From: Ostreococcus lucimarinus
Lineage: Eukaryota
DNA length: 64,000 nucleotides
Direction: 5' to 3' (one strand)
Assembly (NCBI GenBank): GCA_000092065.1
Contig: CP000586.1
In this document: in pieces, positions 10,641-29,364 of the stretch
Position numbering within the stretch: the first letter of the stretch is position 1
How the letters are laid out: the number at the start of each line of letters is the position of its first letter
Position numbers and translations under genes: made by a program
The notes under the pieces: generated by a model
The model's input: the letters and a program-made list of their open reading frames with translations, nothing else
Told to the model about the DNA's origin: nothing
Database searches by the model: none

Positions 10641-10774
10641 CGCGGTTGCTCGCGTTCGTTCGCGGCGGCCTTTGAATCACCTCGTCCTCCCCGAGCGCGC
10701 CGATCGGTCCGCACCGCGCCGCACCGCGGGCGCGCCGTCCGTCGGTTCGGCACGCCGCCGCCTCGCGTTCGTCC

Positions 10775-10862: not shown

Positions 10863-11216
10863 TTCGCCGTCGTCGTCTCGCCCGCGTCGGCGTCGCGGTG
10901 TGCCATCCAACCGCGACGGGCGCCGACGCGCCGATGCGCCGATGCGCGCGACGACGGCCATCGCAATCGAACGCGAATGCGACTGCGTCAGAAGACGTCG
11001 GTGCGCGCGACGTCCCGTCGGACGGGACGCGCGACGCGTGGGATGGCGCCGACGCGACGACGCGGACGCCGACGCGGCGCGGGCGACGACGCGCGCGACG
11101 ACGACGCGGATGGGTGCGATTTCAGTCGACGGTTGGCGCGAGGCGCGACGACGACGACGAAATTGAAGACGAACGCGGTGACGAATGCGCGACGACGACG
11201 CGCGCGTGGACGCGGT

Positions 11217-14200
11217 ATGGCGTGGAGGGTGGTAGCGGTGATAACGTGCGCGACGTCGTGGACGTGGGCGACGGTGTCGGCGAACGCCGTGACGTTGATC
11301 GGCGCCGGCGCGTCCTTTCCGGCGAGCGTGTACGGAGAGGCGATGAGCGCGTACGCGCAGGCGACGGCGAACGTGACGGTGACGTATAACTCATTTGGAA
11401 GTGGAAGTGGATTGTGTCGAATACAAAACGCCAGCGTGGAGTGTACGGATAGTAAAGGCGTGGACGAGGTAGATTTCGCGTGCAGTGACGCGTTGTTGAA
11501 TGATACGGCGTACGCGGCGTACCCCGATTTACAGATGTACCCCGTCATCGCAGGAGCGGTGGCGTTGGTGTACAATCTCCCAGACTCTACGTATAGCGGC
11601 ACGGCGACGGTGCTTAAATTCCTTAAATTCGACGCCAACGCCTTGTTGGGGGTGTTTTTGGGAAATATCACGCGTTGGAACGACGCCGCGATAACGGCGT
11701 TGAATCCGACGATGACGCTTCCGAACGAGTTGATCAAAATAGTGGTGCGTCAAGACAGTTCTGGGACGACGGAGGCTTGGACAAGTGCTTTATCGACGAT
11801 GAATGCATCTTTTGCGAGCGGGGTGGGGACGTCAAAGCTACCCGACTGGTCCGCGGTGTTGTCGAGTTACGTGACGAGATCTCAAGGGATCGGTGTCACG
11901 TCCTACGTCAAGGCGACGAATTACTCGTTGGGCTATGCCGTTTTGGCTGACGCAAACGCGGTGAACGCATCCATCGCTGGTTACGTTCACGCAGGCACCT
12001 CAACAGCGGTGCTCCCAAACTCTGCGTCGATTTTGCAAGCCGTGAAGACGCGAGGATTGCAATTTGGCAACAACGGCGACAACCCGGTGCGCCTGACGGC
12101 CACCATCGCTCCGGTGCTCACGAATGCTTTAGCTTGGCCGTTTACGACGTACTCGTACGTCGTATTGCGGACTGGTATGGTTGGCTTCACGGAGAGCGAT
12201 CGATTACGAGCCGGGGCGTCTTGTGAAAACGTGAAGCAGACAGTGGCGTTCTGGAACTGGTTTCTCACGAGCGCACAATCGTCGCGAATCGCCGAACAAC
12301 ATGGCTTTGCTGCGATGCACGACGAAATAGGCGCGCTTGTGTCTGCAAGACTCATCGCAGATGTCTATTGTCAAGGGACTCGCGTCGCGGCTGTGACAAC
12401 ATCAACCACTGTACAGGCTATACAGGTCGGAGTCACTGCTCCAGTCACACTCAATAGGCTTCTGTACTCGTTACGCGCCCTGTACGAAGCGTACAATTCG
12501 AGCTCAACGCTCGCCATTAGAGAACTGACCACTGCGGAGGGCGCACTGGCAAATATCCTTGCCGATAACGGTATGGCGATTGGGATTGATTTGGTTGGCA
12601 CTCCTCTCGCCGCTCTATCAAGGCTACCGTTGTTCTCGATTGAGGCACGAATGGGACTGAATAAAGGTGTTCTTCAATTAGGAGCGACAGGGACGACTCT
12701 GGCGCTCGACTCTGTGGCCGTCGCGGCAATTTTAAGCGGCGACGCCACGACGTGGGGGCATCCCGAAATAGTGCGCTTGAACACCTTTTTAAACGGGGTA
12801 ACGGCACCAATCGTCTTGGCTGGCATTCTCGATCCCGAAGCAAATGCATTCTATCGCACTTACCTTTCACAACTGGTCACTGCAAACGCTTCTTTTACGT
12901 TGGCTACACCGAGCTTTCGTGGGTTGTCATATTCTGAAGTCGCTGCTTTTGTTGTTGAAACTCCAAGCTCGATCGCTTTTCTTCCTGGAGACGTAGTGAA
13001 TGCTTTTAAGCCTTATCTGTCGTCGTCGAGCGCGTTGAGTAACCTCGCGGCTACCCAAATGGATGTGTATTACAAACCAGTCAATAGCGGCGCAGAGTGT
13101 GGGGGGGCAATGCGCCAGGCGCTCAAATCCATGCTCAGCATGTTAGAATGGATGGCTTCCGACACCGATGTACAAGGTATTATTACAGAAGCTGGTGTGA
13201 CGCCATCGTTTGCCTCATCACCGGCTGTGCTGCAGACATTTTTATCGAATGTGCGAAGCGTGACGTGCAACGGCGTCTCCATTCTGAATCCACAAAATGC
13301 GCAGTCGTCGGCTGCGTTGAGTGTGAGTCCACTGATAATGGCCCTATCTGTTGGCCTTGGGTTGTTGACGTTCGCGATGTTCGCATTCTTTGGAGGGGCA
13401 CTGCTGAAAAGTTTATTTGTCCAGACAATTTTGAATCAATACAAGCGCTCGCATCCTCCAACCGATGCGGAAGTCACAATCGTCGTCACAGACGTCCAAG
13501 CTTCGACGCAGCTTTGGCAAAAAGCTTCGGTTCACATGAATCGGGCTCTTGCAATACACGACAAAATAATGCGGGCGGCGATTCATCAAACATTTGGTTA
13601 TGAGGTTTTGACGGAAGGAGACAGTTTTGTCATCGCGTTCCACTCTGCAGGAGATGCGCTCAAGTTCGCGATGCTGGTTCAAGAGCGCATGCAAAACTAC
13701 GCCTGGGACTCACCGCTCATTAGAGTGTGTAATGAAGTCTACGACGCGTACGACGCAGAAATCTTCGAGCAAGCTACACAAGGTCGCAACTTTAAGGCAA
13801 AGGAACTTTTACTCAACGCCGTTTCGAGTCGTAGAGTGATTCAAGAAGACACCATGTACGACGAAGGCGACGTGAGTACTCATGCTGGTAGAGGACAAAT
13901 GAATGCGTTTAGAGTTCCTCTCGGGGCGAAGGCTAGTCCCTTGAGTGAAATTCCTAAGATTCACGGTCTTCGCGTACGTATCGGCATGCATACCGGATTC
14001 TGTCAGAGCAGAACGCATCCCACGACGCGACGACGAGAATACTACAAGGGGGCCGTGACGATTGCCAGCGCCGTCTCCGATTGTGCCACTGGTGGTCAGA
14101 CTGTGATTTCAGGGGAAACAATGGCGGCGATACTAGGTGAGATCAAAGAAACGTCCCGAGCTTTCCATGCGCTTCACATGGGACGCCATCAAATGGGGTT

Positions 14201-16226
14201 GAACGCCAAAGAGCTGGATTTGACGGAGGCTGTCGACGAGAGAACCGTGCAAGTTGACGGCAAGGTTGGGCTGGACGACTCGTCAGCGCCTACTGACGAC
14301 GTCACGTTTGCGCTGACCACGGATAGCACAAGACTAAGATGGCGTGCGTCCGATTCTGAAACATCGACAGAGGAAGGCTCGTTGGAAGTGAACCCGGCGT
14401 ACCGCTACGCGCAAAACGCGAAAGTCTCAATCATAAAGAAGGTGGCTTACGATAAAATACACCAGACGAGTCTATTCCAGTCCGAGCTGGTGCAAGCCGT
14501 GCCGAAGTCGCTTGCAACTCGTTTGGCGTTATTCTCTAATCTGCGCACTGTGCGTCAATTGGAGCCATCTTATTATGATTCGCCAGGACTGAACGATATG
14601 AAAGTCACCATCGTTTTCACGTACATCGAAGGTTTGAAGGAACTCAGCGTGGCATTAAAGGACGTGATGGAAGACTCCGTGGGTCTTCTAAATGCGGCTG
14701 TGCGCGCCACGCTACCAGTTTTTAACGGTTACGAGTCTAGAGAATCAAATGGCGAATTTTTGCTCGCTTTCCACTCGCCCAATGATGCGTACAAATGGGC
14801 TCTTCTTGCTCAAAGCGCGTTCATGAAGCTCGACTGGCCGAAAAAACTGTTGACGCATCGGAGCGCGAGACGCATGCGCAATGGAAGACGCGACGTATTC
14901 TTTGGACTCCGCGTGGGGATGGGTGTATGTTCTGGTAAGTGTGCCGACATCAGACCATGTATCCGCACCGGACGCTCCGAGTATTTCGGTGCAATCTTGA
15001 ATTTTGCGTCGAGGGTTGCACGCAGCGCCAAAGGTGGGCAAATTTTAACAGATTATGAAACCTTGAAATCGGCCATTCAAAACGATTATGTGGTTGAATT
15101 TTGTCACGATCTAGGAATGTACCAATTTAAGGGCATCGACAACACCGTACGAGTCATTCAAGTCTCCGACGCGTCGCTGATGATGCGTTCTTTTGAGGAA
15201 ATTGACGCAATCCAAGTCGCACCGCCGGTTGGATTGGATGAAGATCGCGATTTAAGGTCGCAAACACGGAGTGACGATCGTTCAAGTGTATGTATTTTGT
15301 TGTGTACGGCTAAATCACCACTGATAAAGATTGTGCAGTCGTTGGTGCGAGCCATTCGTAAAGAGATACAAGTCGTCAGTGCGCAGAGGATCGACGACGT
15401 CGTCAGTCAATTAAGACATCGTAATTCAGCTGGCCTCATTCATAACCACATGGTGATTGTTTCTGATGAGATCGAACGTTTAGACGTCGTGGATGCTTGC
15501 CGACAAATCCGCAGAAAACTCAACTTGTTTATGCAGCCGAGGCTCGCAGTGTACGCTTCACTCCTAAACGATCTCGACGCTGAACAGCTCGGCATTGACT
15601 GCCTTTTGCCTACTTTGGATGCACCTTTTGACGCTAGTTCATCCCGCAATTCATATGTCGATGGTGATAGTGATTCGGAGTACGAAGAAGATATGATTGC
15701 GTTCAAACAAGTGGTTGAATCTTTCCTTTTGGGAGAAGCGAGCGAGAGTGGCTTGGGCGTCTTGCAAAGGCTGTCAGAATCAGGCGGTATTGCATCAGCA
15801 CCGACTCTTGAAGCGAATCAAAACGATGAGAAACTACCAACGTTCAAACAAGCGCCCGTGCCAACTCATAACAAGCCGCTTTTGAGCATGTCCAACATTG
15901 GGATGTTGACTACGACGCTTGAGGCGGTTTGCGCAAGAGCTTTCGCAATCGACGTGAATCAACAGCTCATATTTGCTACGCGCCGCGCCGTGAAGGCTGG
16001 TGTGGGCGCTTCTTCGGGACCACTTCCGCCATCAGACTGGCTATCTCGAGTAAGTACTGTCGCTGCGAAGGCGCAAAGGGGTATACTCCGTCAGTCTTGG
16101 GTTGAAACGATAAAAGGCAGTTGGCTCGACGAAAATTCAGAGGACGAATACGTCGACGCCGTGCACAAACCGATTCGTCTCGGCGATGATTTCGCAGTTG
16201 TTTTAGTGACTTTGCAAAGTCGTTGA
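11217..16226 (+). CDS. Receptor-type class III nucleotide cyclase: signal peptide, PstS-like ectodomain(s), one TM helix, two cyclase homology domains, receiver-like tail
   Basis: Track ORF 10341..16226 is antisense to RPC25 at its 5' end. The convincing start is ATG 11217 (MAWRVVAVITCATSWTWATVSANA, signal-peptide-like). A ~310-aa PstS/phosphate-binding-protein-like domain follows (GAGASFPASVY, YNSFGSGSG, DFACSD, LVYNLP, FLGNITRWND, VRQDSSGTTEAWT, LGYAV). Next comes a second degenerate PBP-like module (ILSGDATTWGHPEIVRLN). The ectodomain carries many NxS/T sequons. There is one TM helix (LIMALSVGLGLLTFAMFAFFGGALL, ~13327-13405). CHD1 spans ~13470-14130 (VTIVVTDVQAST, GDSFVIAF, RIGMHTG). CHD2 spans ~14600-15165 (VTIVFTYIEG, NGEFLLAF, RVGMGVCSG, FGAILNFASRVA). 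A ~350-aa C-terminal tail completes the protein. Confidence 0.85.
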   Translation: MAWRVVAVITCATSWTWATVSANAVTLIGAGASFPASVYGEAMSAYAQATANVTVTYNSFGSGSGLCRIQNASVECTDSKGVDEVDFACSDALLNDTAYAAYPDLQMYPVIAGAVALVYNLPDSTYSGTATVLKFLKFDANALLGVFLGNITRWNDAAITALNPTMTLPNELIKIVVRQDSSGTTEAWTSALSTMNASFASGVGTSKLPDWSAVLSSYVTRSQGIGVTSYVKATNYSLGYAVLADANAVNASIAGYVHAGTSTAVLPNSASILQAVKTRGLQFGNNGDNPVRLTATIAPVLTNALAWPFTTYSYVVLRTGMVGFTESDRLRAGASCENVKQTVAFWNWFLTSAQSSRIAEQHGFAAMHDEIGALVSARLIADVYCQGTRVAAVTTSTTVQAIQVGVTAPVTLNRLLYSLRALYEAYNSSSTLAIRELTTAEGALANILADNGMAIGIDLVGTPLAALSRLPLFSIEARMGLNKGVLQLGATGTTLALDSVAVAAILSGDATTWGHPEIVRLNTFLNGVTAPIVLAGILDPEANAFYRTYLSQLVTANASFTLATPSFRGLSYSEVAAFVVETPSSIAFLPGDVVNAFKPYLSSSSALSNLAATQMDVYYKPVNSGAECGGAMRQALKSMLSMLEWMASDTDVQGIITEAGVTPSFASSPAVLQTFLSNVRSVTCNGVSILNPQNAQSSAALSVSPLIMALSVGLGLLTFAMFAFFGGALLKSLFVQTILNQYKRSHPPTDAEVTIVVTDVQASTQLWQKASVHMNRALAIHDKIMRAAIHQTFGYEVLTEGDSFVIAFHSAGDALKFAMLVQERMQNYAWDSPLIRVCNEVYDAYDAEIFEQATQGRNFKAKELLLNAVSSRRVIQEDTMYDEGDVSTHAGRGQMNAFRVPLGAKASPLSEIPKIHGLRVRIGMHTGFCQSRTHPTTRRREYYKGAVTIASAVSDCATGGQTVISGETMAAILGEIKETSRAFHALHMGRHQMGLNAKELDLTEAVDERTVQVDGKVGLDDSSAPTDDVTFALTTDSTRLRWRASDSETSTEEGSLEVNPAYRYAQNAKVSIIKKVAYDKIHQTSLFQSELVQAVPKSLATRLALFSNLRTVRQLEPSYYDSPGLNDMKVTIVFTYIEGLKELSVALKDVMEDSVGLLNAAVRATLPVFNGYESRESNGEFLLAFHSPNDAYKWALLAQSAFMKLDWPKKLLTHRSARRMRNGRRDVFFGLRVGMGVCSGKCADIRPCIRTGRSEYFGAILNFASRVARSAKGGQILTDYETLKSAIQNDYVVEFCHDLGMYQFKGIDNTVRVIQVSDASLMMRSFEEIDAIQVAPPVGLDEDRDLRSQTRSDDRSSVCILLCTAKSPLIKIVQSLVRAIRKEIQVVSAQRIDDVVSQLRHRNSAGLIHNHMVIVSDEIERLDVVDACRQIRRKLNLFMQPRLAVYASLLNDLDAEQLGIDCLLPTLDAPFDASSSRNSYVDGDSDSEYEEDMIAFKQVVESFLLGEASESGLGVLQRLSESGGIASAPTLEANQNDEKLPTFKQAPVPTHNKPLLSMSNIGMLTTTLEAVCARAFAIDVNQQLIFATRRAVKAGVGASSGPLPPSDWLSRVSTVAAKAQRGILRQSWVETIKGSWLDENSEDEYVDAVHKPIRLGDDFAVVLVTLQSR

Positions 16227-16302: not shown

Positions 16303-19300
16303 CTAATAACCGGTATCTCCAACGAGCGACGCATACGTCGAGTTCTCTCTTTCATCCGCTCGTCGGTCCCGAAGTTTTCCCGAAGCTTTCAGCATGAAAG
16401 CTGGGAGGTCTAGTCCTAGTAAACTATAAATTATTTTGCGTGTTTCTTTCATGACACTCGGTGGTGCGTCCCACGAATTCAACGACAGGGTTTCAGCTGC
16501 GTTTTCAGTTCCCCGACTCGGTTCGGCGACAGCAAGGAGGGCAATGTACAAATGCTCCGCCGCTGCGCAACGCACGCGAGGGAAGCGGTTCGCCATGAGT
16601 GCGAGTAGCCCCATCGATGCTGATTCGTGAACGACGCTATCAGCAGCACCGACGAAGTGAGCCAGGCATGCGCTCCCAGTGACGAGCTTTGAAATATCTC
16701 TGCTCGAGAAACACTCACAACGAATAGCTTCGATGAGTTGAATCGCGTGCGTGTGCGCCTGATCCAACGCGCCGTGCGAAATTAGGGCATCGCACACTCG
16801 TAAAGCCGGTACCGTAACGCGATCAACGTGCTTGTTTTGACACAGATCTTGTATAATCGATGCCACAACAATATCTGGAAGGCCCTCAAACCGCCTAATC
16901 GCTCGTAACAACGCATCGGTCGAAAAGCGCACCAGACTGTCGCCTACACTTCCGCAACTCAGAAACCATCCGCTCAACGCGGCGTTGACGTACGCCTCTG
17001 CGCCGAGAACGGGAGTTAACGTCGCGAAAATTGTCGAGACATGGGAAGCATCTGGCGCTGTTTCGACAGTCGCTGGCAAGCAACATTGTAAAACATCGTA
17101 GTCTGGCACACCAGAGAGCGCGTGTACTGTTAGTTTGGCCTGCACTCGCATTCTAACTCGAATCGCGTCACCACCACGCACGAGCTGCACGAGCGTCACA
17201 AGCGCTTGACATCGAATGCGGTCGATTTTTTCGAATGCTTGCTTGAGAAGTGCTGTCATGATGTTTTGCGACTGATCTGCAGCTAAAGCATTGCGCATTT
17301 GCAAAGCGGCGACAAGCACAGGGAAGCATTTCATCGCCGATTCTCGCACCCACGAGCCGACGTCGCCACGGTTGTCAACGCTGTAGTCGCACAAACATCC
17401 GAGTAAAGTGGCGATCGCAGTGTCCGATACAAAGGCGATGTCGTCGTCATCGATATCATGGCACTCTGCACACATTAATTTCACACTCAGCTCCGAGAGA
17501 CTGATCGTTGCGTTCACCCGCGTCTCGGCGTCTCTCATTTCTACATCTTCTTCCGGTTTCGTGGCTACCGACAGCGCCGTGATGACCGCGCGCAGAGTTG
17601 CACTTTTATCTTCACTATTTTTCGCGGCGAGAAGACTTGTCACAGGAAATCCGCCTAATACGAGCGCCGATCCACGCCGCACGACACCTACGAGATCGTT
17701 GACGACGATTTCAGCGTGCCTCAATAGCAAGCAATGAGCACGGTGAGATCCACGCGAAGCGTAATTCGTCTCTGTAAATGCGGCGATGGCGTCTGAGGCG
17801 GCAGCCTGTACGTCTCCGTTGCAGCACTGCAGACTCTCTTCCGCAAAGTAGACAAAGGCATCTGTCGCCTTCGAGTCAATCTTGTGATTCTCGTCGCAGC
17901 ACAAAAACACGCACTCAATGAGCCTACACGTCGCGCCACGCATTATTTCGCCGCCTTTTCCTTTGTACATCTTCTCCCTTTCCATACTTTGAACTAAATC
18001 GGCTACTCGTTCGAAACAGTCGTCTTCGAGTTTTGTTTTTGCACGCTGTGTCACGAGTAACATCTCACCGATCGAAAGCACAGCGCCGTGGCGCGTCGAC
18101 AAGTCAGAACTCGTCGCGCGCGACAGAACTGTTTTTATGCCTACGTCACCGATCCACTGCGGGTCTAAATTACCCAGAGCTCTGATTGTTTTCGTCGCGA
18201 GTTGCCGCGTGGCAAGTTCCCAGTGCGTGAGCTTCGTGTCCAACACGTGCTCGAGTAACGAACGCCTATATTCTTCAAACTGACAGATGAATGGTGCCAC
18301 CGTCAACGCAGCTCGGGTTCGCGATCCAAGCGAAAAGTAATCCGCCACGGTGACAATGTCGATGCCGTGAGGAAACTTGCCGAGCCGTCCGACGGCTTCT
18401 TGAAAGGCAGCGGATGCGGCTCGGCGACAATTAACTTCACGATCGAAACACGATATCATGAGAAGCCTCGGTGCAAGTTGGTCGACAAAAGGTTCGAAAA
18501 CGCCCGGTTCATATGCGCGCGCAAACGCCCAACATACATATGCTGCCGCATCTCGCACGTGCGCACCGATTGAGTGCGCTCCTCGTCGAACGTCGTAGAT
18601 GAGAGCGTCCATGCATCGCGGTACGGCCTCCACCAATCTATTCGGCAACAACAATCCACGTCGAGCGAGCTCAGCCAGAGCTAAACATGCGCCGTGCCAA
18701 GTTGAATCGCTTTCGATAACCGATAAGCACGCCAAAACCGCTCCAACGACTTCGTCACCAAAATCACGCGGGAGTCGAGAGCTAATTCTCCCCAACGCTT
18801 TCGCCGATGTCCAGCGTACGATAGTCTCCGCATCTCGCAAACCGACGAGACATATTTCAACAATATCATCAACAGCCATGTGCACGTCGCATTTATCATC
18901 TTCGTCCGCCGCCGTGGTGAGTTGCTTCGTCGGCGGCTTTTGCATCGCCCCGCTCAAGTTATCTTGCAAACACCGCGCACCACGATCATATCGCCACGAC
19001 ACCACTCGAGGTTTCATAAAAACCAAACCCACGCGACTGGCGAGCTTGATACTCAGTTGTCTCACCATGGTCGAGCGTTTCGCCAAACTTAGCCGCGTCG
19101 CGCAATACTGCGCGTCGTCCCAGTTTCCCTCCGCGTACGGCAGCAACTGCTCTCGAGATCCAATCTTGTATATCGCCGCGAGCGCCCGCAGTACACCCGG
19201 TACTAAGAAAATCATTTCTCTTTCCTTTTCATCATTGACGTCTCCACGAAGCGTCGCGCTCGACCAGGTCATGAACTCGCGCAACGCCTCGCTCATGTCC

Positions 19301-19989
19301 GGTCGCGTGAGAAGCTTGGCGAGCGTTTGCGCCGCCACGTCGCGCACCGCGGACGGATCGCCTAAAAAGTGCTTGCACTCTCGCATCAAATCACTCACGA
19401 CGCTCGGAATTTTCGAACGCGACGAATGCGGATCGATCGCGCTATCGATCGACACCAAGTCAAACGGCGCCAACGCCAAAATCGACAACCAACTCGTGAG
19501 CACGCGTTGCGTTTCCCACGTATTGTCTCCACGCACTCGCGCTTCCCGCAGCAGACGCACCGCCGGCTCTAAATACTTCGCCGCGTTCGGATAGAACCGC
19601 ACGCACGTCTTCCATCCGCGCACGCTCGACAGCGCATCCAGCGCCCTGCAGCACGCGTTCGCGTTCGCCTTCGCGTTCGCGTTCTCGTTTTCGTTTTCGT
19701 TCGCCTCCGTCGACGCTCGCGCCACCGCGTCCATCAAAGGCTCGATCACGCCCCCCAGCATCGGATCCAGCACCGTCGGCTGTTCTCTATACTTTTCAAT
19801 CACTCCCACGAACGCCCGCACGTCGTCTTCGTCCGCGGCGTCGTCTTCTTCGTCGCGTCCACGCGCGCTTCGCCGAGTCAACGCGCGAACGATGGCATCC
19901 ATCGCGTCGCCGTCTGCCGCGACGTCCACGCGCGACGTCGCGCGCTCGCGACGACGCGCGTCATCACCCTCACCCTCGCGCGTCCCCAT
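16303..19989 (-). CDS. TBCD: Tubulin-folding cofactor D (beta-tubulin chaperone)
   Basis: ATG at 19989, 1228 aa, HEAT-like repeats throughout. TBCD hallmark stretches are present: VVSWRYDRGARCLQDNL, ETIVRWTSAKALGRISSRLP, WHGACLALAELARRGLLLP, RDAAAYVCWAFARAY, FDREVNCRRAASAAFQEAVGR. Confidence 0.9.
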   Translation of the reverse strand: MGTREGEGDDARRRERATSRVDVAADGDAMDAIVRALTRRSARGRDEEDDAADEDDVRAFVGVIEKYREQPTVLDPMLGGVIEPLMDAVARASTEANENENENANAKANANACCRALDALSSVRGWKTCVRFYPNAAKYLEPAVRLLREARVRGDNTWETQRVLTSWLSILALAPFDLVSIDSAIDPHSSRSKIPSVVSDLMRECKHFLGDPSAVRDVAAQTLAKLLTRPDMSEALREFMTWSSATLRGDVNDEKEREMIFLVPGVLRALAAIYKIGSREQLLPYAEGNWDDAQYCATRLSLAKRSTMVRQLSIKLASRVGLVFMKPRVVSWRYDRGARCLQDNLSGAMQKPPTKQLTTAADEDDKCDVHMAVDDIVEICLVGLRDAETIVRWTSAKALGRISSRLPRDFGDEVVGAVLACLSVIESDSTWHGACLALAELARRGLLLPNRLVEAVPRCMDALIYDVRRGAHSIGAHVRDAAAYVCWAFARAYEPGVFEPFVDQLAPRLLMISCFDREVNCRRAASAAFQEAVGRLGKFPHGIDIVTVADYFSLGSRTRAALTVAPFICQFEEYRRSLLEHVLDTKLTHWELATRQLATKTIRALGNLDPQWIGDVGIKTVLSRATSSDLSTRHGAVLSIGEMLLVTQRAKTKLEDDCFERVADLVQSMEREKMYKGKGGEIMRGATCRLIECVFLCCDENHKIDSKATDAFVYFAEESLQCCNGDVQAAASDAIAAFTETNYASRGSHRAHCLLLRHAEIVVNDLVGVVRRGSALVLGGFPVTSLLAAKNSEDKSATLRAVITALSVATKPEEDVEMRDAETRVNATISLSELSVKLMCAECHDIDDDDIAFVSDTAIATLLGCLCDYSVDNRGDVGSWVRESAMKCFPVLVAALQMRNALAADQSQNIMTALLKQAFEKIDRIRCQALVTLVQLVRGGDAIRVRMRVQAKLTVHALSGVPDYDVLQCCLPATVETAPDASHVSTIFATLTPVLGAEAYVNAALSGWFLSCGSVGDSLVRFSTDALLRAIRRFEGLPDIVVASIIQDLCQNKHVDRVTVPALRVCDALISHGALDQAHTHAIQLIEAIRCECFSSRDISKLVTGSACLAHFVGAADSVVHESASMGLLALMANRFPRVRCAAAEHLYIALLAVAEPSRGTENAAETLSLNSWDAPPSVMKETRKIIYSLLGLDLPAFMLKASGKLRDRRADERENSTYASLVGDTGY
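19655..19702. repeat. Hexanucleotide microsatellite (GCGTTC-like, 8 units) inside the TBCD coding region
   Basis: GCGTTC GCGTTC GCCTTC GCGTTC GCGTTC TCGTTT TCGTTT TCGTTC. On the minus strand this encodes NENENENANAKANANA in TBCD. The same hexamer recurs at 28189..28218. Confidence 0.85.
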
Positions 19990-20246
19990 CGCCGACGCCA
20001 GACGCGCGTGCGCGGCGCCTAGTCCGCCGCGCGCGCGTCTGGCGATGACGCGTGTGGCGGTTGGCGCGTTCGGGCGCGCGGCGCGCGCGCGCGCGGCGGA
20101 CTAGGGTTAGAGCTTGGAGTCAACGCGCGCGCGCGAAAGGATGGACCGTCGCGATCGGACGTGCTTTTATACAATTCTAAACGCTCGCCGCGCTCGCGCG
20201 CTCGCGCGCGTCCGCGGCGGCGCGATTCAAACGCCGCGCGGCGACG

Positions 20247-20540
20247 CTAGGAAAACGCCCACCGCGCGAAGAAGACGAAGACGAAGACCAAGCACACGAC
20301 TTGCCAAAAATATCCCTGCCTTCTCGCCTGCTCCACGACCTGCGCGAACGCGCGCGCGCTTTCTCTCAGAGCGTCTCTCGCTCGCGCGAAGTCATCGCTC
20401 TGTTCGTCGAGCATTCTTCGCTGCGCGCCGACTTCGTCGTGAATGTCGATGGTGATGTTCTTCAGCGCCGACGCGCGTTCGCTCACGCGGTCGATGTCTC
20501 GATCGTTTTCGCGCTCCATCGCGCGCGTCGCGGCGTGCAT
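20247..20540 (-). CDS. Bet1/Sft1-family Qc-SNARE (tail-anchored)
   Basis: The track ORF begins at a TTG (20810). The first ATG is at 20540, giving 97 aa. The sequence MHAATRAMERENDRDIDRVSERASALKNITIDIHDEVGAQRRMLDEQSDDFARARDALRESARAFAQVV forms a SNARE heptad motif. It ends in a C-terminal TM anchor (YFWQVVCLVFVFVFFARWAF). Size and layout match Sft1/Bet1. Confidence 0.75.
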   Translation of the reverse strand: MHAATRAMERENDRDIDRVSERASALKNITIDIHDEVGAQRRMLDEQSDDFARARDALRESARAFAQVVEQARRQGYFWQVVCLVFVFVFFARWAFS

Positions 20541-20890
20541 CGCGCGTCGGCGACCGCGCTCTGTCGCCGTCGTCGTCGCGTCGTCGTCAGTCGCGTCGTC
20601 GTCGGTCGTCGTCCATCGTCGTCGTCGTCCATCGTCGTCGTCGTCCAGCGTCCATCGCGCATCGTTCGCGTCGTTCGCGTCGCGCGTCGTTCGCGTCCGT
20701 CGCGCGACCTCGCGATCGATTCGCGCGCGTTCCGTCGTCCACCGCGCGCGCGTCGCACCTCTCGCGCGTCCGCGCGCGTCGTCGCGCGTCGCGACGTGCC
20801 GCTCGACCAACGGCTGCGGGACGACGGAACGCGACGCGCGATGCGCTGACGCCGACGCGCGAGAGGTGCGACGCGCGACGCGCTCGAACG

Positions 20891-23569
20891 ATGGCGATGA
20901 TACCGGTCGACGACGCCCTGGCGATCGCGCTCGATGTCGTCGCGCGTGGCGCGCGCGCGACGACGACGAAGACTCGAGTGGAGCGCAGCGCGAACCGCGT
21001 GTCGGCCGAGGACGTGCGCGCGACGACGCCGCATCCCGCGTTCGCGGCGAGCGTCATGGATGGGTACGCGCTGAACGCGCGCGCGAGCGCGGCGGCGATG
21101 CGGGCGAACGACGACGGTGGGGCGACGCGACGATGGGAGTTTGAGATTGTCGACGACGAGGCGTCGCGGGCGGGACCGGCGAAGGCGACGCGCGACGACG
21201 AAGGACGCGAATTTGGCGCCATGGAGTGTGCGTACGTCACCACGGGCGCGGTGTTACCTCGAGGATGTGATTGCGTCGTGCCGGAGGAAGCGTGCGAGGT
21301 GGTGAGGGAGGGATCTGGACGCGCGCGCGCGGACTCGAGCGACGTCGTTTCGGGAAAGTGGACGCGCGCCGTCGGGAGCGACGTGCGAGGCCGAGGGGAA
21401 GTTTTGATCGCGAAAGGTGAACGGTTGAGCGCGTATGATGTTGGCGTGCTAAAGTACGCTCGGGATGTCGTTGAGACGTACGAGCCTCCGCGCGTTCGCG
21501 TTTTGAGCACGGGCGATGAGTTGGCGGCGAGTGCGAGCGACGTCGCCGTTCGCGGATGCGTCGTGGACACAAACGGTCCGATGTTGGAAGCGCTGTGCGG
21601 TGAAGAGGGCGCAGAAGTAATATCGCGCGATATAGTGCGAGACGACGAGGCTGCGACGAGGGCAGCGTTCGAAATGGCCGTCGCCGACGCTTCGTGCGAC
21701 GCGCTCATCACCTCTGGCGGCGCCTCGGTGGGTGACAGAGATTTCGTGAAACAGACGATCGAAGGTCTCGGTGGGAAGATTTACTTTAGACGTTTGGCGA
21801 TGAAACCGGGGAAGCCGACGATGTTCGCGACGATTCCTAGAGCGACGGGTCCGCCACTTCTCGTATTCGCACTGCCGGGCAATCCTGTCAGCGCGGCGGT
21901 GACGTTTACGCTCATCGTCGCGCCGTGCATTCGCGCGCTCGGTGGAGTTCGCGAATCTGGACTTCGGCGCATCCATTGCGTATTAGATGAGACGTTACGT
22001 CTCGACCCAGAGCGCGCTGAGTATCATCGCGTCACACTAGATTGGACGCGGGGGAACTTACCCGTCGCGCGCTCCACTGGCGCGCAAATCAGTAGCCGCT
22101 TACTGTCCATGCGAAACGCGGACGCGCTAATCGAGCTTCCGCGAGGACCAGGGGTGGTGGAAAAAGGCGCCATCGCGAGTGCGCTGTTGATTTCAGATGT
22201 AAGACACGCGAAAGGTGCGAACATGGAGAAAATACAATGGCCCAAAAAGTCACGCGGCGACGAGAGTCGGCGTTCGAACGAGGCGCTCGACTCCATCGTG
22301 ACCGTGCTCGACGCCGAGGGATCCGTCCGGGATTTGAAACGCGTCGTAGGGCTTGAAGAAGACGCGAGGCGTCATTGCCGTGCCGCCGGAGATTGCGTGG
22401 ACGCGCTTAATGAACTGAGGATGTATTCAGATGGCGATTCCACGCACGTTGCGGTGACAGACGCGCAGTCGCCAGGATTACGAAGAGGAATCGCAACAAC
22501 TTTGGAACGACTGCGCGTCGTCACGCCGATTGGCGACGTTATCACTAAACGCGCGTATGCCCGCGTGGGTTTAGTTGGGAATCCGTCCGATGCATACGGA
22601 GGCAAGTGTGTGGCGTTTACCATTTCAAACTTTTTCGCTGAAGCGTCGCTACGCCGAACGCCATCATCGAAGCGCGTAACGTTCGCGCCGGGCCCGTACG
22701 ACGGAAACGCGTTCGATTCATTCGACGCCTTGTCGACGCACGTATCCCAACACGGTGTCGATGGTGGTGTGCGTCTACTTAAGTCGCTATGTTGCAACCT
22801 CATGCGATATTGCGAGTCGACAAAGCAGAGAATCGATACGTCATGTGGCTTTGAGATGTCATACACGTCGAACATCCCGAAACAAACCGGCTTGAGCGGT
22901 TCGAGCGCCATCGTCATCGCCGCGATGAGATGTCTTCTCGAAATGTATAGAATCAACATTTCGTTGGATGATCAGACCGAGCTGGCTTTACGCGTCGAGC
23001 GCGATGTCGGCATCAACGCCGGACCGATGGATAGAGTCGCGCAGGTGTATGAAGGCGCGGTGTTTATGGATTTCACAAAACCGCGCGCGTCAACAGCATG
23101 CGGTTGGCGCATTCACGGTGAATACACGCGCGTGGAGACGGATGAATTGCCTCCTTTGTATCTCGTGTGGGCCAAAGACAACGAGAGTGAGAGCTCTCGA
23201 ATTCACGCCGACGTTCGGCGTCGATGGGACGCTGGAGACGCGGATGTCGCAACGTCGATGTCGCGCCTCGCGTCGCTCGCCGACGACGTATTCAAAGCTA
23301 TGGCAACGCGACAAATCAACGTCGAAGAACTCAAAACGTCGATCGACACGAACTTTGATATTCGTCGAGCGCTTTTCGGTGATCAAGCGATCGGCGCGTT
23401 GAATGTAACACTCGTCTCGGTGTGTCGCGAACGCGCGGGTTGTGCGGCAAAGTTTGCCGGCAGCGGTGGCGCTTGCGTCGTCGTTTGCGAAAACGACAGA
23501 GCGCGCGCTTTAAAGGAAGCGTGCGACGCGCACGGGTTCGAAGTCGAACGCGTCGTCGTGCGAAAGTAA
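20891..23569 (+). CDS. Single ORF fusing a complete MoeA/Cnx1E-type molybdopterin molybdenumtransferase domain to a glucuronokinase-like GHMP kinase
   Basis: ATG at 20891, 892 aa, no stop. The N-terminal ~440 aa are MoeA-like (MIPVDDALAI, VMDGYAL, STGDEL, VDTNGPML, SGGASVGDRDFVKQ, MKPGKPTMFA, LPGNPVSAAVTF, plus a MoeA C-terminal domain ending ...ASALLISDV). A ~95-aa linker follows. The last ~355 aa are glucuronokinase-like (RAYARVGLVGNPSDAYGGKCVAFTISNF, GGVRLLKSLC, PKQTGLSGSSAIVIAAMRCLLEMY, NAGPMDRVAQVYEG, PPLYLVWA, FDIRRALFGD, KFAGSGGACVV). Confidence 0.85.
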   Translation: MAMIPVDDALAIALDVVARGARATTTKTRVERSANRVSAEDVRATTPHPAFAASVMDGYALNARASAAAMRANDDGGATRRWEFEIVDDEASRAGPAKATRDDEGREFGAMECAYVTTGAVLPRGCDCVVPEEACEVVREGSGRARADSSDVVSGKWTRAVGSDVRGRGEVLIAKGERLSAYDVGVLKYARDVVETYEPPRVRVLSTGDELAASASDVAVRGCVVDTNGPMLEALCGEEGAEVISRDIVRDDEAATRAAFEMAVADASCDALITSGGASVGDRDFVKQTIEGLGGKIYFRRLAMKPGKPTMFATIPRATGPPLLVFALPGNPVSAAVTFTLIVAPCIRALGGVRESGLRRIHCVLDETLRLDPERAEYHRVTLDWTRGNLPVARSTGAQISSRLLSMRNADALIELPRGPGVVEKGAIASALLISDVRHAKGANMEKIQWPKKSRGDESRRSNEALDSIVTVLDAEGSVRDLKRVVGLEEDARRHCRAAGDCVDALNELRMYSDGDSTHVAVTDAQSPGLRRGIATTLERLRVVTPIGDVITKRAYARVGLVGNPSDAYGGKCVAFTISNFFAEASLRRTPSSKRVTFAPGPYDGNAFDSFDALSTHVSQHGVDGGVRLLKSLCCNLMRYCESTKQRIDTSCGFEMSYTSNIPKQTGLSGSSAIVIAAMRCLLEMYRINISLDDQTELALRVERDVGINAGPMDRVAQVYEGAVFMDFTKPRASTACGWRIHGEYTRVETDELPPLYLVWAKDNESESSRIHADVRRRWDAGDADVATSMSRLASLADDVFKAMATRQINVEELKTSIDTNFDIRRALFGDQAIGALNVTLVSVCRERAGCAAKFAGSGGACVVVCENDRARALKEACDAHGFEVERVVVRK

Positions 23570-23641: not shown

Positions 23642-25270
23642 CTACATGGATACGTGCGCGGCGATGCCCACTTGAAACCCGTCGCTGACGCGATCGTTTG
23701 TCCCCGCGCGCACGACTTTGCCGTAATTCATTTCGATCTGACCGATCGGCAACGGCCAAACAATGCCAACGCCCAAAGACGCGCGCGTGGCGTCGCGAAC
23801 AACCTTGATCGCGTCTTTCGGCGCCCCTGACAGAGCGGCGAGCGGTAAGAGCGTCCCGGCGGTCGCAAACGCGTGGAAATGAATCCCAGCCTCCCTCATG
23901 GCTTCAAATTTCTCTCCCGGAATATCCATCTGCAACGCAGCCGTGGCGCTCCACACGAAATCGCCTCCTAAAGCGTCTCTCGTGAGCGACGGTTCTCCAT
24001 CTTCGGCGCTCGACGGCGTCTTTGCGCCCGGTGATTCCTCCGCCGCTGCGGTCTTTTTCGTTCCACGACGCGCGTCACTCGGGCCAACGCCGTTATTTTC
24101 GAACTGGCGCAGACACCCGACGCCACCTAAGAAGAATCTATCCGCAATGCACGTCCTACTGTCACCATCGTTGCCAGATTTCCCCCACGGAAATAACACG
24201 CCAAAGCGCCCAGACGCCGACGCCGTGATACCGCGCGACGCGTCCAACGTCTCAACGACGTGCGCGCTGACTTCAGACTTAACGAACTTTGCCGCGAGCG
24301 CGTTATCCATAAACCCGATGCCCGCTAACTCGGACCGAATCTTCCACAAATAGCCCGACGTCGGCCTCACCTGTCTGTCGAGGCGGTCGGAGACGTACGT
24401 GTGCGTCACCGCCGACTTGAGCGAGTGTCCGAGCTGACGTCGAACTTCCCGGCTAGCCATGCGCGTTGGATCTTGAACATCTCGCCACGCGATTTCGTAA
24501 TCCACCGTTCCCGGTCCGTCACCCGCGACGCCCACGCGAATGCCCCTCGACGTCACGTCGAATGAGCTCAACTTTTTAAAGCACTCGACGGACTGAAAAG
24601 CGCGCGCGTCCAAATTTACGTCGCTCCCGTAAAGTTTTGGTTGTTCCCACGCCGCAGAGTACGTCGAGCTCGAATTCTGCCCCTTGATGAGTTCGACCTC
24701 AAACTTTTCCCCGTACCCGAGCGGGTTGCGCAGCCCAAACGTCGCCTCCGCCTCGCCCTCGCCGCGTTTGCTCACGTACGTTCCGACTTTAAAATGAAAC
24801 GCGTCTTTTTCCTCCACGCTCACCACCACCTTCGCCCCCGGCACGTCCCCACCGTCCAACCGTCCTCCCTCGTGATCCGCATCGATCACGATCGCGACGT
24901 CTTTAAATATCCCGTATTCATACAGCCTCGCGTTCGCCGCGAAGAGCGCGTCCTTGATCCCGTCCAGCGTCCTCGCCTCGTACGCCCTCGCCAACTCTCG
25001 TTCGATCACCGACGCTCGCGTCCGTTCGTTTCCTCGTATCTCGATCGACGACACCGCGCACGCGTCATCGCGCACTCGGTCGTACCGCGCTCGGAATTCA
25101 TTCACCGGCGGCGTCGACGTCGTCGCCCCCGCGTCCGCCGACGCCGAGGATTCCGCCGACGCCGAGGATTCCGCCGCGTCCGCCGCGTCCGACGTCGCGT
25201 CGCGTCGTTCGCCTCGCGCCGTGAAGCTCGCGTCGTCGTCGCGCGCGTCCGTCGTCGTCGTCGTCGCCAT
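23642..25270 (-). CDS. SAM50: Sam50/Omp85-family outer-membrane beta-barrel protein (single POTRA)
   Basis: The track ORF starts at a TTG (25858). In-frame ATGs lie at 25651 and 25270 (MATTTTTDARDD...). There is one POTRA-like unit (VSSIEIRGNERTRASVIERELARAYEARTLDGIKDALFAANARLYEYGIFKDVAIVID). A bacterial-surface-antigen barrel follows (GLRNPLGYGEKFEVEL, RFFLGGVGCLRQFENNGVGP, GGDFVWSATAALQMDIP, IGQIEMNYGK). The start at 25270 is preferred because a divergent exon is predicted at 25717. The Arg/Ser-rich extension from 25651 cannot be excluded. Confidence 0.8.
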   Translation of the reverse strand: MATTTTTDARDDDASFTARGERRDATSDAADAAESSASAESSASADAGATTSTPPVNEFRARYDRVRDDACAVSSIEIRGNERTRASVIERELARAYEARTLDGIKDALFAANARLYEYGIFKDVAIVIDADHEGGRLDGGDVPGAKVVVSVEEKDAFHFKVGTYVSKRGEGEAEATFGLRNPLGYGEKFEVELIKGQNSSSTYSAAWEQPKLYGSDVNLDARAFQSVECFKKLSSFDVTSRGIRVGVAGDGPGTVDYEIAWRDVQDPTRMASREVRRQLGHSLKSAVTHTYVSDRLDRQVRPTSGYLWKIRSELAGIGFMDNALAAKFVKSEVSAHVVETLDASRGITASASGRFGVLFPWGKSGNDGDSRTCIADRFFLGGVGCLRQFENNGVGPSDARRGTKKTAAAEESPGAKTPSSAEDGEPSLTRDALGGDFVWSATAALQMDIPGEKFEAMREAGIHFHAFATAGTLLPLAALSGAPKDAIKVVRDATRASLGVGIVWPLPIGQIEMNYGKVVRAGTNDRVSDGFQVGIAAHVSM

Positions 25271-25716
25271 CGCGTCGTCGTCGTCGTCGTCTGCGGTGAC
25301 GAAGTCGACGCATCCATCCGGCCGGCGATCCCATCCCAGCCATCGTCCGCTCGAGTCCCCCTCGCGACGGTTCACGACTCGTCCGCGTCGACGCCCGTTC
25401 GCCCGCGCGTCACTGCGCGACGCGACGCGACGCGACGGACGACGGACGACGGACGACGGACGACGCGCGAGCGCGCGAGCGACGAACGGTGAACGACCGC
25501 GGTGCGACGCGCGACGCGACGCGACGCGAGGACGCGACGCGAGGACGCGCGCGACGGATGATTCGGATTCGCATTCAAAAGGGGAACGGCTGTCGAACGA
25601 CGACCGACGACGACGACGACCGACGACGACGACTGACGAAGACACCGACATCGCGCGCGCGACGGGGTGAAATAGGACGAGGATACATGTTTCGCAGACG
25701 AGAGACGGCGGGTGGG

Positions 25717-25807
25717 ATGGCGACGCCGACGGCGTTGCGGACGGCGACGAACGACGACGGGGACGAAGCGCGGACGCCGACGCCGCTGAGAAGCGCGTTG
25801 AAGAAGG
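25717..25807 (+). CDS. Predicted exon 1 of a hypothetical coiled-coil protein gene (inferred)
   Basis: ATG at 25717 (or 25687) opens MATPTALRTATNDDGDEARTPTPLRSALKK. It ends 1 nt into a codon at a GTGCGA donor (25808). The phase matches the acceptor at 25918/25919 (G+GT = Gly). Confidence 0.35.
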
Positions 25808-25918
25808 GTGCGAGACGCGACGCGACGCGACGCGATGCGATGGGTGAGGGATGGGCAATGCATGCGCGACGATGATCTATCGATGACGCGCGACTGACGG
25901 ATGGGCGAACGCGCGCAG
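25808..25918 (+). other. Predicted spliceosomal intron (111 nt)
   Basis: Donor GTGCGA at 25808, ACTGAC at 25893-25898 (21 nt before the 3' end), acceptor GCGCAG ending at 25918. It removes the in-frame TGA at 25873-25875 and joins two segments in the same frame. The grammar is the same as the three firm PSMA6 introns. Confidence 0.4.
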
Positions 25919-26844: not shown

Positions 26845-27837
26845 ATGGGATTCGGTCAACTCGTCACCGGCCCGCCGGGCGCGGGAAAGACGACGTACTG
26901 CGTCGGCATGAAGCACTTTTACGAGCTTCGTGGACGACGCGTGGCGATCGTCAACTTAGATCCAGCGAACGACGTGGCGCCGTACGAAGCCGCGGTATCG
27001 CTCGAAGACCTCATATCCGTCGATGAAGTGCAAGAGGAGCTCGGACTCGGGCCGAACGGGGCGATGATTTACTGCATGGAGTATTTGGAAAAGAACGCCG
27101 ACTGGTTGCGGGACGCGTTGACGCCGCTTCGGGACACGCACTACTTCATCTTCGATTGCCCGGGGCAATTGGAGTTGTTCAACGTGCACGGATCTTTCCG
27201 TAATGTGCTGCATCGAATGATGAATGAGTGGGATTATCGACTGTGCACGGTGCATTTGAGTGATTCACACCTGTGTTGCGACCCGGGCTCGTACGTCAGC
27301 GCGTTGCTCGTGACGCTCCAGTCGATGTTGCATTTAGAGACACCGCACGTGAGCGTGTTGAGCAAAATCGACATGCTGGAACAATACGGCGAGTTGGCGT
27401 TCAGCTTAGACTACTATGCGGAGGTGATGGATTTAGATTATATAGTGGAACACATCGGAAACGATCCGAAACTCGCCAAGTATAAAAAGCTCACGAGCGG
27501 GTTGTGCGAAGTCATCGAGGACTTCGGGCTCGTGCGCTTCGTACCGATGTCGATCGAAGACGAAGAAACGGTGAGCAGAGTAGCGACGTTAGTGGATAAG
27601 TCCATCGGGTATTCACTCGGCGTGCACAAAGGCGCACGTCTCGGCACGGAGGAGCTTCGCGAACGCGCCGCGCGCGGTGACGAGGACGAGGACGAAGAGG
27701 CGTTCGACATGCGCAACGCCGTCGCGAAGGCGCCAGCGATCGAATCGTACTCGCAAAACCTCGAAATTCAGGAGCGATACTTCCCCAAGAGCGACCGTAA
27801 CGACGATGGCGGATCGAAAACCCCGACCGCGGAGTAG
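26845..27837 (+). CDS. GPN2: GPN-loop GTPase 2
   Basis: ATG at 26845, 330 aa. It has the P-loop FGQLVTGPPGAGKTTYC, VAIVNLDPAN, the GPN motif LGLGPNGAMIYCMEYL, and FDCPGQLELF. The GPN2-type C-terminal region is LAFSLDYYAEVMDLDY...LVRFVPMSIEDEE. Confidence 0.9.
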   Translation: MGFGQLVTGPPGAGKTTYCVGMKHFYELRGRRVAIVNLDPANDVAPYEAAVSLEDLISVDEVQEELGLGPNGAMIYCMEYLEKNADWLRDALTPLRDTHYFIFDCPGQLELFNVHGSFRNVLHRMMNEWDYRLCTVHLSDSHLCCDPGSYVSALLVTLQSMLHLETPHVSVLSKIDMLEQYGELAFSLDYYAEVMDLDYIVEHIGNDPKLAKYKKLTSGLCEVIEDFGLVRFVPMSIEDEETVSRVATLVDKSIGYSLGVHKGARLGTEELRERAARGDEDEDEEAFDMRNAVAKAPAIESYSQNLEIQERYFPKSDRNDDGGSKTPTAE

Positions 27838-28218: not shown

Positions 28219-28423
28219 GCCTCGCCTCGAGTCGGGTCAGAGCAAAGATGACATCGTGTGCGTTCGTGTCTTCACGCGTCCATCGCCGATCGACGGGCGT
28301 CGGAGAGAAGATTAGCGTACGCGTGTGACTCATCATCCCCGTCGCGCGGTCGCCGTCGCGTCGCGCCGTCCCGTCGCACCTCTCCACCGTTCCGACGCAA
28401 AACCTCACCGCCGCGCGTCGTCG

Positions 28424-28457
<34 letters not shown>

Positions 28458-28656
28458 CGCGTCGCCGCGCCGTCCCTTCGCGCCGCGCCGCGCCGTCCTT
28501 CGCGCCGTCCTTCGCGCCGCGCCGCCGCGTCGACGCGCGTCGCGTCTTGACGTCGTCGCGTCTGACGTCGCGCGGTCGACGCGATCTCACGACGAACGGG
28601 CGACGTCAAAACGCGACGCGACGCGCGACCGGCTCGAACGCGCGCGGACGCGCGGC

Positions 28657-29364
28657 ATGAGCGATGGAAGGTACTCGTTCTCCCTCACGACATTCTCCCC
28701 GAGCGGAGAGCTGGTGCAGATAAAACACGCGCTCGCCGCGATCGGGGCGGGGGCGACGAGCCTCGGGATCAAGGCGAAGGATGGTGTCGTGCTGGCGACG
28801 GAGAAGAAAGTGCCGAGCGCGCTCGTGGACGCGACGACGGTGAAGAAGATCGCGCTGCTGACGGATGAGATCGGGATGACGTACAGCGGGATGGGACCGG
28901 ACTTTAGAGTGCTGACGCGAATGGCGAGGAAGGAGACGCAGACGTATTACCGGACGTATAAGGAGAGCGCGCCGGTGAGCCAGTTGGTGCGAGAGACGGC
29001 GACGACGATGCAAGAGTTTACGCAACAAGGTGGTGTGCGACCGTTCGGGGTGTCGTTGCTCGTCGCGGGGTACGATGAGAGCGGACCGAGTTTGTATCAA
29101 GTCGATCCGAGCGGGTCGTACTTTGCGTGGAAGGCGAGCGCCATCGGAAAGAATATGGTCAACGCGAAGACGTTCTTGGAGAAACGGTATAGCGATGACA
29201 TAGAATTGGAAGATGCGATTCACACCGCGATTCTGACGCTCAAAGAAGGTTTCGATGGGCAGATTTCTGCGGAGAACATTGAAATCGGCGTCGTCGGCGT
29301 CGACAGGAAATTTCGAGTGCTCACCTCGAGCGAAATCGCAGATTACCTCGAAGAAGTCGAATAA
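28657..29364 (+). CDS. PSMA2: 20S proteasome subunit alpha type-2 (alpha2/PAB)
   Basis: Track ORF 28258..29364 has an Arg-rich artefactual 5' end. The real start is ATG 28657, giving 235 aa: [29 protein letters not shown]...[15 protein letters not shown]...GMGPDFRVL...[37 protein letters not shown]. Intronless. Confidence 0.95.

Follow-up and report, generated by a model that had tools for sequence, protein, structure and literature searches.

Eukaryotic molybdenum insertases have so far been found either as fusions of an E and a G domain (plants, fungi and animals) or, in some green algae, as the products of two separate genes for E and G, and the locus described here raises the question of whether an E domain joined in one reading frame to a sugar kinase is a real gene and, if so, how it arose and what it does. 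The locus lies in a window (the whole stretch of DNA that was analysed) of 64,000 nucleotides from the Ostreococcus lucimarinus contig CP000586.1 (assembly GCA_000092065.1), in which the open reading frame (ORF) at 20891..23569 (+) encodes, in a single frame, a MoeA/Cnx1E-type molybdenum insertase, a spacer, a middle module and a kinase of the GHMP family. A first-pass annotation, made from the sequence alone, had described this ORF as uninterrupted and 892 codons long, and the ORF listing gave identical limits and 892 amino acids (aa). All the motifs quoted in it were found, namely ASALLISDV (aa 429-437), MEKIQWPKK (aa 445-453), RVGLVGNPSD, PKQTGLSGSSAIV and KFAGSGGA, the last three at the positions given in the table below.

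That the fusion is a genuine, conserved single gene, and neither an assembly error nor a recent loss of a stop codon, was confirmed by comparison with other genomes. A full-length search returned 18 clusters (90% identity) resembling the fusion protein, with 49-57% identity, 96-100% query coverage and the same set of Pfam domains. The fused orthologues span at least six lineages, and in every one of them the frame stays open across a spacer of varying length and sequence. The orthologue of O. tauri (XP_003079619.1, CAL53264.1 or Q017Z7) is fused over its full length of 899 aa, and its gene is annotated in GCA_000214015.2 as a single exon of 2700 nt. The exact protein of the window, together with 99% variants of it, was present on dozens of independent metagenomic contigs, and the codon-position signature GC1>GC2<GC3 (GC, guanine plus cytosine), with GC2 lowest, was found in all four protein segments. 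When 1.84 billion representatives were scanned exhaustively with HMMER, the architecture was limited to three 50%-identity clusters plus one fragment and is, therefore, that of one narrow clade.

Within the species, the gene of the window and the commoner environmental variant differ by an in-frame one-codon indel near 23490 (CENDRARAL vs CENDDRARAL; 892 vs 893 aa). Besides this indel, only four codons differ between the window gene and the 99% variants, and a population ratio of nonsynonymous to synonymous substitutions (dN/dS) calculated from them was uninformative. Tara records marked 'gene_type:complete' were not used as transcript evidence: P0178 and P0177 begin with a GTG-called Val, and such starts mark them as prokaryote-style ORF calls. 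Other frames and the opposite strand carry several long ORFs (183-374 aa) that overlap the fusion gene in its 5' part (20443-21711, both strands); their translations are rich in Arg, Ser and Asp, which shows that they arise from the 67% GC composition and are not genes.

The N-terminal half had been taken for a complete MoeA including the C-terminal domain IV, and the profile searches bear this out. The Pfam models MoeA_N (aa 4-187, E 4e-30), MoCF_biosynth (aa 204-348, 2e-34) and MoeA_C (aa 365-432, 1e-12), which correspond to domains I-II, III and IV, respectively, all scored above their cut-offs and complete the four-domain architecture. The solved structure closest to aa 3-438 was that of Arabidopsis thaliana Cnx1E (E 4e-67), followed by gephyrin E and Escherichia coli MoeA, and a Foldseek search with the full model yielded Cnx1E, gephyrin-E or MoeA in all the top 50 matches, with Cnx1E and gephyrin E as the best ones. 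In Cnx1E, Thr198, Glu201, Asp242 and Asp274 have been shown experimentally to position the Mg2+/water shell and are essential for the hydrolysis of adenylylated molybdopterin (MPT-AMP) (PMC6954367). Mapping through a HMMER alignment placed them at T207, E210, D251 and D284, and all four were invariant in the 19 full-length orthologues over which conservation was scored. The same was true of Cnx1E K294/K297, S328 and R369, which map to K305/K308, S334 and R375 (motifs MKPGKP and LPGNPVS); of these, Lys294, Ser328 and Arg369 are residues that have been probed for molybdate binding, the variants being named in the PDB entries 6gax, 6gb4 and 6gbc. The E domain has a mean pairwise identity of 61% among orthologues. 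By all the sequence criteria tested, the fusion protein belongs to the MoeA/Cnx1E family, and these conserved residues suggest that its N-terminal half is a catalytically competent E domain.

For the C-terminal part, described earlier as a full-length glucuronokinase-like GHMP kinase, the first-pass annotation had named a profile match as the test. GHMP_kinases_N matched aa 643-722 with an E value of 3.5e-15, and dozens of plants have proteins named glucuronokinase to which this half was 41-48% identical over its whole kinase body of about 340 aa (E 1e-72 to 1e-95), well beyond chance. The match to GHMP_kinases_C at aa 841-881 was weak (1.8e-3; 19 bits, with a cut-off of 21), although this domain is recorded for the orthologues. 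Other GHMP kinases were much more distant: a heptose kinase in the PDB reached about 1e-8 at best, and the NCBIfam models for mevalonate kinase, heptose kinase and galactokinase gave 1e-11 to 1e-8, all far under their cut-offs. Among orthologues, the kinase has a mean pairwise identity of 56%, and both the catalytic-loop pair Asp714-Arg715 and GHMP motifs I, II (pattern PxxxGLxSSA) and III (KxxGxGGG-type) are invariant. The AlphaFold2 model of aa 551-892 showed the expected alternation of strands and helices with a predicted local distance difference test score (pLDDT) mostly between 75 and 93, although the fold search with the full model was dominated by MoeA matches. The JGI databases label fragments of the fusion's own cluster 'glucuronokinase'. 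By sequence criteria, this half is thus placed in the glucuronokinase branch of the GHMP kinases. We infer that it is a catalytically competent sugar-1-kinase of the glucuronokinase family, with glucuronate or a closely related sugar acid as substrate.

An acceleration of the kinase after the fusion was considered as a sign of neofunctionalisation. Identity to plant outgroups was 42.6% for the fused kinase vs 50.2% for its Micromonas counterpart, and 39.2 vs 44.9% for MoeA. As both halves are accelerated about equally, the effect is lineage-wide and not specific to the kinase, and the idea was rejected.

The division of the protein into four parts is based on alignments of 13 and 19 full-length orthologues, on the identities calculated for each region and on the AlphaFold model (mean pLDDT 70.7). 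What had been called a linker proved to be partly that. The variable spacer is predicted to be disordered (pLDDT below 50 for aa 435-468) and differs in length among orthologues, but it is followed by a module with predicted structure that the first-pass annotation had missed, so the region is no plain linker. This middle module has a mean pairwise identity of 47%, with V470, L482-K483-R484, G487, E489-E490, R493, C496, S513, H519 and R540 invariant. No relatives of it could be detected outside the fusion family, and a six-frame search of all unfused loci with its hidden Markov model (HMM) gave a best E value of 0.37. This result leaves no support for a derivation from the RING-type gene, the intergenic DNA or the MoeA tail of the unfused loci described below, and hhalign against the MoeA tail of the Micromonas pusilla-like type returned a probability of 0.1%. 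A marginal PDB match to a phage DNA alpha-glucosyltransferase (E 0.003 over 27 residues) was treated as chance. Being undetectable in the unfused loci, the module is either new or has diverged past recognition.

Comparison with the loci of relatives, which the first-pass annotation had proposed, showed MoeA and kinase fused in at least six lineages on the Ostreococcus side and separate in four of the Micromonas type. In the latter, MoeA and a stand-alone kinase of 361-368 aa are distinct genes lying 2.2-8 kb apart. In M. commoda RCC299 (CP001324.1), the kinase (XP_002500329.1, 368 aa) lies downstream of the gene for tubulin-folding cofactor D (TBCD), and 8 kb past it, on the same strand, is a stand-alone MoeA annotated with 438 aa, the continuous ORF having 458 aa and no kinase. 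This MoeA is evidently XP_002500333.1, which PMC13262936 gives among the E domains that lack G. The other three lineages (67-70% GC, vs 54-61% in the fused loci) carry MoeA (-), one RING-type gene (-) and the kinase (+) within about 4.5 kb. The unfused loci lie in the same neighbourhood as the fused ones (TBCD, Rpb7, PPR, Omp85 and ATP_bind_1), and the set common to all fused loci comprises TBCD, a giant gene with PBP-like and guanylate-cyclase domains, Omp85, a GPN-type ATPase, a proteasome subunit, Rpb7 and PPR. The TBCD proteins of the fused lineages are 48-57% identical to each other and 41-44% identical to those of two Micromonas lineages, which share 66%, and this grouping is consistent with a single fusion event. 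We also considered whether the stand-alone kinases of Mamiellales could be paralogues coexisting with a fusion; all such loci examined have an unfused MoeA and are of Micromonas type, and the kinases are therefore the unfused orthologues.

Two further observations concern the unfused loci. The closeness of MoeA and kinase (2.2-8 kb) persists in four lineages despite local rearrangement (loci L008, L010, L020 and L022). In Micromonas-type lineages of 67-70% GC, the MoeA ORF (5433-7571 (-) in L010; also in L009, L011 and L022) extends about 250 aa past the E domain, and this tail contains patches with a MogA-like look (ELILTVV, IVVVAPCGPG and LGPEATKK). As a candidate G domain the tail, tested in the 69%-GC lineage, was rejected, since hhalign gave a probability of 1.3% for a 17-residue 'PEATK' patch only and there was no Pfam match; it may be a heavily degenerated domain, or the frame may simply run on through GC-rich sequence.

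On the basis of these comparisons, the fusion seems to stem from two adjacent genes that merged long ago on the Ostreococcus side of the Mamiellales. MoeA and glucuronokinase would have been neighbours within a few kb, beside TBCD, in the ancestor of the Mamiellales; a single merger would have occurred in the ancestor of the Ostreococcus-type members, the genes staying separate in Micromonas; and the fused gene, once fixed, would have persisted in these very compact genomes because the cell can dispense with neither half. The Ostreococcus and Micromonas sides correspond to the Bathycoccaceae and the Mamiellaceae, respectively. The first-pass annotation had offered a bifunctional protein and a merger by stop loss as alternatives. 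Of these, the merger of neighbours and the conserved bifunctional product fit together as one history, whereas a recent loss of the stop does not stand.

Plant Cnx1 carries a G domain behind E. Pfam detected no MogA-type G domain in the fusion protein, its single PF00994 match being MoeA's own domain III. An HMM of plant G domains had no match in the window and only weak matches to MoeA domain III in the relatives, and the middle module aligned to the G profile with an hhalign probability of 0.5%. In the literature, McDonald et al. (2010) reported one CNX1E in each of four Mamiellales genomes, with a CNX1G detected in all but that of O. tauri, namely in O. lucimarinus and the two Micromonas (PMC2944026); the separate CNX1G of O. 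lucimarinus and the two Micromonas is also given in PMC13262936. Sanz-Luque et al. listed CNX1E and CNX1G as 'merged' in three algae, O. tauri, Ostreococcus RCC809 and Bathycoccus (PMC4620153, Table 1/S1), under the JGI identifiers 33158, 91876 and Bathy10g00300/Bathy05g00280. This statement probably misreads the MoeA-kinase fusion, because the single CNX1E of O. tauri is the fusion and a CNX1G query matches the MogA-homologous domain III. A 2026 survey of the organisation of eukaryotic molybdenum insertases never mentions the kinase (PMC13262936). The literature searched contained nothing joining glucuronokinase with the molybdenum cofactor (Moco) or MoeA with a GHMP kinase, and nothing treating the O. 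tauri accessions. The partner is an unusual one, in line with the earlier remark that its family has no established link to Moco. Thus, while the gene model is in public databases, the architecture appears to be undescribed in the literature searched and to have been misdescribed once.

We believe that the most plausible explanation for the fusion is that it encodes one bifunctional polypeptide with two independent enzymes that were brought together by the merger of neighbouring genes and share no pathway, and we hold this to be probable. The N-terminal half would use adenylylated molybdopterin and molybdate to form Moco for nitrate reductase and other molybdenum enzymes, the C-terminal half would convert ATP and glucuronate into glucuronate-1-phosphate for nucleotide-sugar salvage, and the floppy spacer plus the small, lineage-specific module would tether the two. 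The usual fusion of this kinase elsewhere is a protein of about 640 aa with an NTP_transferase domain, that is, with the nucleotidyltransferase of the next step of its pathway, so MoeA is not a pathway-logical partner, and we infer that the two halves are mutually independent. Against the reality of such a protein stands the tendency of GC-rich compact genomes to yield many long spurious ORFs, several of which occur here on other frames, and the fusion could then reflect a mistake in sequencing or assembly, a stop codon lost very recently or a pseudogenised junction in one genome. This has already been refuted: the metagenomic contigs and the assemblies of 49-57% identical orthologues, including the finished O. 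tauri genome, would all have to share one error, and the catalytic residues are invariant in both halves, with a coding GC signature in the four segments. A different view is that one locus makes two products, with the kinase (with or without the module) produced separately from an internal ATG, from an internal promoter or by proteolysis in the spacer. The first-pass annotation had pointed to the ATG of MEKIQWPKK, Met445, which stands in frame directly after MoeA domain IV; the disordered and poorly conserved spacer is a plausible cleavage site, and the domains of other bifunctional sugar-kinase fusions do function when expressed apart (PMC3938481). However, Met445 is Ala in seven of the 13 aligned orthologues, so the proposed start is not supported, and Met511, the sole other Met within aa 430-560, is likewise not conserved. 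Nothing conserved points to an internal start and nothing to an internal promoter, and separate products would not require a frame that stays open in at least six deeply diverged lineages while the spacer changes in length. We regard separate products as quite unlikely.

Recruitment of the kinase and the module into Moco synthesis, be it for the ATP-dependent activation of molybdopterin (MPT) performed by the G domain, for scaffolding of the insertase or for coupling to sugar-nucleotide status, draws on several observations. The kinase follows E, just where plants have the G domain; the fused-lineage loci, which are the parts of those genomes that were examined, showed no stand-alone kinase; BlastP/TBlastN searches failed to detect CNX1G in O. 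tauri (PMC2944026); and the only gene reported for O. tauri, RCC809 and Bathycoccus is the 'merged' one (PMC4620153), yet the fusion protein has no G domain. The middle module is exclusive to the fusion, and its conservation in the alignments shows selection that would go beyond that on a passive tether. The fused kinases also differ at positions that are otherwise invariant and adjoin the presumed catalytic Asp: within the family patterns GIxAGLQDRV and GYYGGVRLL, AGPMDR (aa 710-715) stands in all of them where every stand-alone glucuronokinase examined (plants and Micromonas) has AGLQDR, and GVDGG (aa 622-626) replaces the G(Y/H)YGG of the stand-alone ones examined; these clade-specific changes (L to P, Q to M and YY to VD) could reflect a shifted substrate specificity. 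The module and the changes in the kinase weigh against the favoured reading, as do two further points: the linkage in the unfused loci could be chance retention of an ancestral state but could also hint at co-regulation; and the direction that we favour, fusion rather than fission in Micromonas, takes its polarity from outgroups with separate genes and not from a rooted tree. On the other hand, all the phosphotransfer motifs are those of true glucuronokinases, with 41-48% full-length identity to the plant enzymes. GHMP kinases transfer the gamma-phosphate and are not known to adenylylate. Moreover, the two halves are accelerated about equally, the module is unlike G domains, and a separate CNX1G has been reported for O. 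lucimarinus, itself an Ostreococcus (PMC2944026). Recruitment is thus unlikely; the finding would be much more important if the kinase acted in Moco synthesis. The strongest form of recruitment, in which kinase and module replace, or are required for, the ATP-dependent step or the scaffolding of MogA/Cnx1G at least in O. tauri, RCC809 and Bathycoccus, where two studies detected no separate CNX1G, is very unlikely; if true, a cofactor pathway that ranks among the most conserved would have had its G step taken over by the kinase as a non-homologous replacement.

Like plant Cnx1 (E-G) and animal gephyrin (G-E), the fusion protein contains a Cnx1E-type E domain with the probed catalytic and molybdate residues kept, and it resembles Cnx1 in having E at the N-terminus and a second ATP-using domain after it. 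In contrast to both, the partner is a GHMP sugar kinase and not a MogA-type G domain, and as this defining domain is absent, the protein is not a two-domain insertase of the Cnx1/gephyrin type. In Chlamydomonas, Volvox and Micromonas, E is encoded apart from G (PMC13262936, PMC4620153), as it is here, but there E stands alone, the 438-aa E protein of M. commoda being the unfused orthologue in the syntenic region, whereas about 450 C-terminal residues (spacer, module and kinase) are added in the fusion. With the stand-alone Arabidopsis GlcAK1 family (about 350-370 aa), the kinase shares GHMP motifs I-III and the N-terminal signature AYARxGLxGNPSD, and it differs in its place behind MoeA and in AGPMDR and GVDGG. 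The zebrafish-type pyrophosphorylase-glucuronokinase GKUP has an N-terminal partner that catalyses the next step of the same pathway (PMC3938481), while here the partner comes from an unrelated one. Bacterial and archaeal MoeA fusions (MobB-MoeA PRK14491, the 'MoeA/unknown domain fusion protein' PRK14497 and PRK14498) also combine MoeA with another domain, and their models match the N-terminal half, but far under the cut-offs, and the partners are MobB, periplasmic-binding-like or unknown domains and never a GHMP kinase.

An E domain joined to a sugar kinase would be a third, undescribed state of the eukaryotic insertase, with a new domain partner, kept throughout an entire branch of marine picoalgae that are ecologically dominant. 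If the 'merged' entry does refer to this gene, which gene serves for MPT adenylylation in O. tauri, RCC809 and Bathycoccus becomes a question again. The syntenic loci, fused on one side and unfused on the other, offer a clean natural case of neighbour-gene fusion in compacting genomes, which includes the birth of a new structured module between the domains, and a caution against taking 'Rosetta-stone' fusions as pathway links. Specialists in Moco will find the fusion surprising, and it makes a neat example of evolution, but it probably involves no new chemistry.

Table 1. Coordinates of the MoeA-kinase fusion gene, its parts and the genes around it (positions in the window, except for M. commoda)
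Feature	Coordinates	Strand	Residues	Basis or remarks
Whole fusion gene	20891..23569	+	892 codons + TAA stop	ATG start; intron not needed; ORF listing and full-length orthologues
Mo-insertase E domain (MoeA/Cnx1E type, domains I-IV)	20891..22204	+	aa 1-438	Pfam, PDB Cnx1E, Foldseek
STGDEL motif with T207 and E210	21506..21523	+	aa 206-211	HMMER-alignment residue mapping to Cnx1E Thr198 and Glu201
Variable spacer	22205..22288	+	aa 439-466 (28 aa)	32% mean pairwise identity; holds Met445 (22223-22225)
Middle module	22289..22534	+	aa ~467-548 (~80 aa)	Conserved; predicted beta-beta-alpha-beta-beta-alpha; only in fusion family
Glucuronokinase-family GHMP kinase domain	22535..23566	+	aa 549-892	41-48% identity to plant glucuronokinases; tblastn of stand-alone kinases maps 22535-23542
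GHMP motif I region, RVGLVGNPSD	22562..22591	+	aa 558-567	G560, G563, N564, P565 and D567 invariant in fused and stand-alone kinases
GHMP motif II, phosphate-binding loop, PKQTGLSGSSAIV	22877..22915	+	aa 663-675	P663, Q665, G667, L668, S669, G670, S671 and S672 invariant; Pfam GHMP_kinases_N
GHMP motif III, KFAGSGGA	23450..23473	+	aa 854-861	K854, G857, S858, G859 and G860 invariant
Tubulin-folding cofactor D (TBCD) gene	16303..19989	-		Pfam; synteny anchor in fused and Micromonas loci
Small divergent gene between TBCD and fusion	20247..20810	-		ORF; small minus-strand gene called at same place in relatives
Giant ORF	10341-16226	+	1961 aa	PstS-like periplasmic-binding domain (PBP_like_2) and adenylate/guanylate cyclase catalytic domains
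ABCG transporter	7902-9743	-		
Omp85/POTRA beta-barrel	23642-25858	-		
GPN-loop ATPase	26845-27837	+		
Proteasome alpha subunit	28258-29364	+		
M. commoda separate kinase gene	10001-11107			Locus L008 of CP001324.1
M. commoda separate MoeA gene	19029-20405			Locus L008 of CP001324.1

Around the fusion gene, the small divergent gene leaves only about 80 bp before the fusion ATG for a shared divergent promoter. Its product has a long, low-complexity N-terminal half rich in Asp, Arg and Thr, followed by a C-terminal heptad region and a hydrophobic tail; by eye it resembles a tail-anchored SNARE of the Bet1 type, with no significant Pfam match. The housekeeping neighbours (Omp85/POTRA beta-barrel, GPN-loop ATPase, proteasome alpha subunit and ABCG transporter) are intronless, with spacers of 50-250 bp, and none is tied to Moco or to sugar metabolism; such tightly packed, ordinary eukaryotic genes fit a nuclear chromosome of the Mamiellales. 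The giant ORF adjoins TBCD and the fusion in all Ostreococcus-side loci, and from its domains its product could be a ligand-sensing cyclase.

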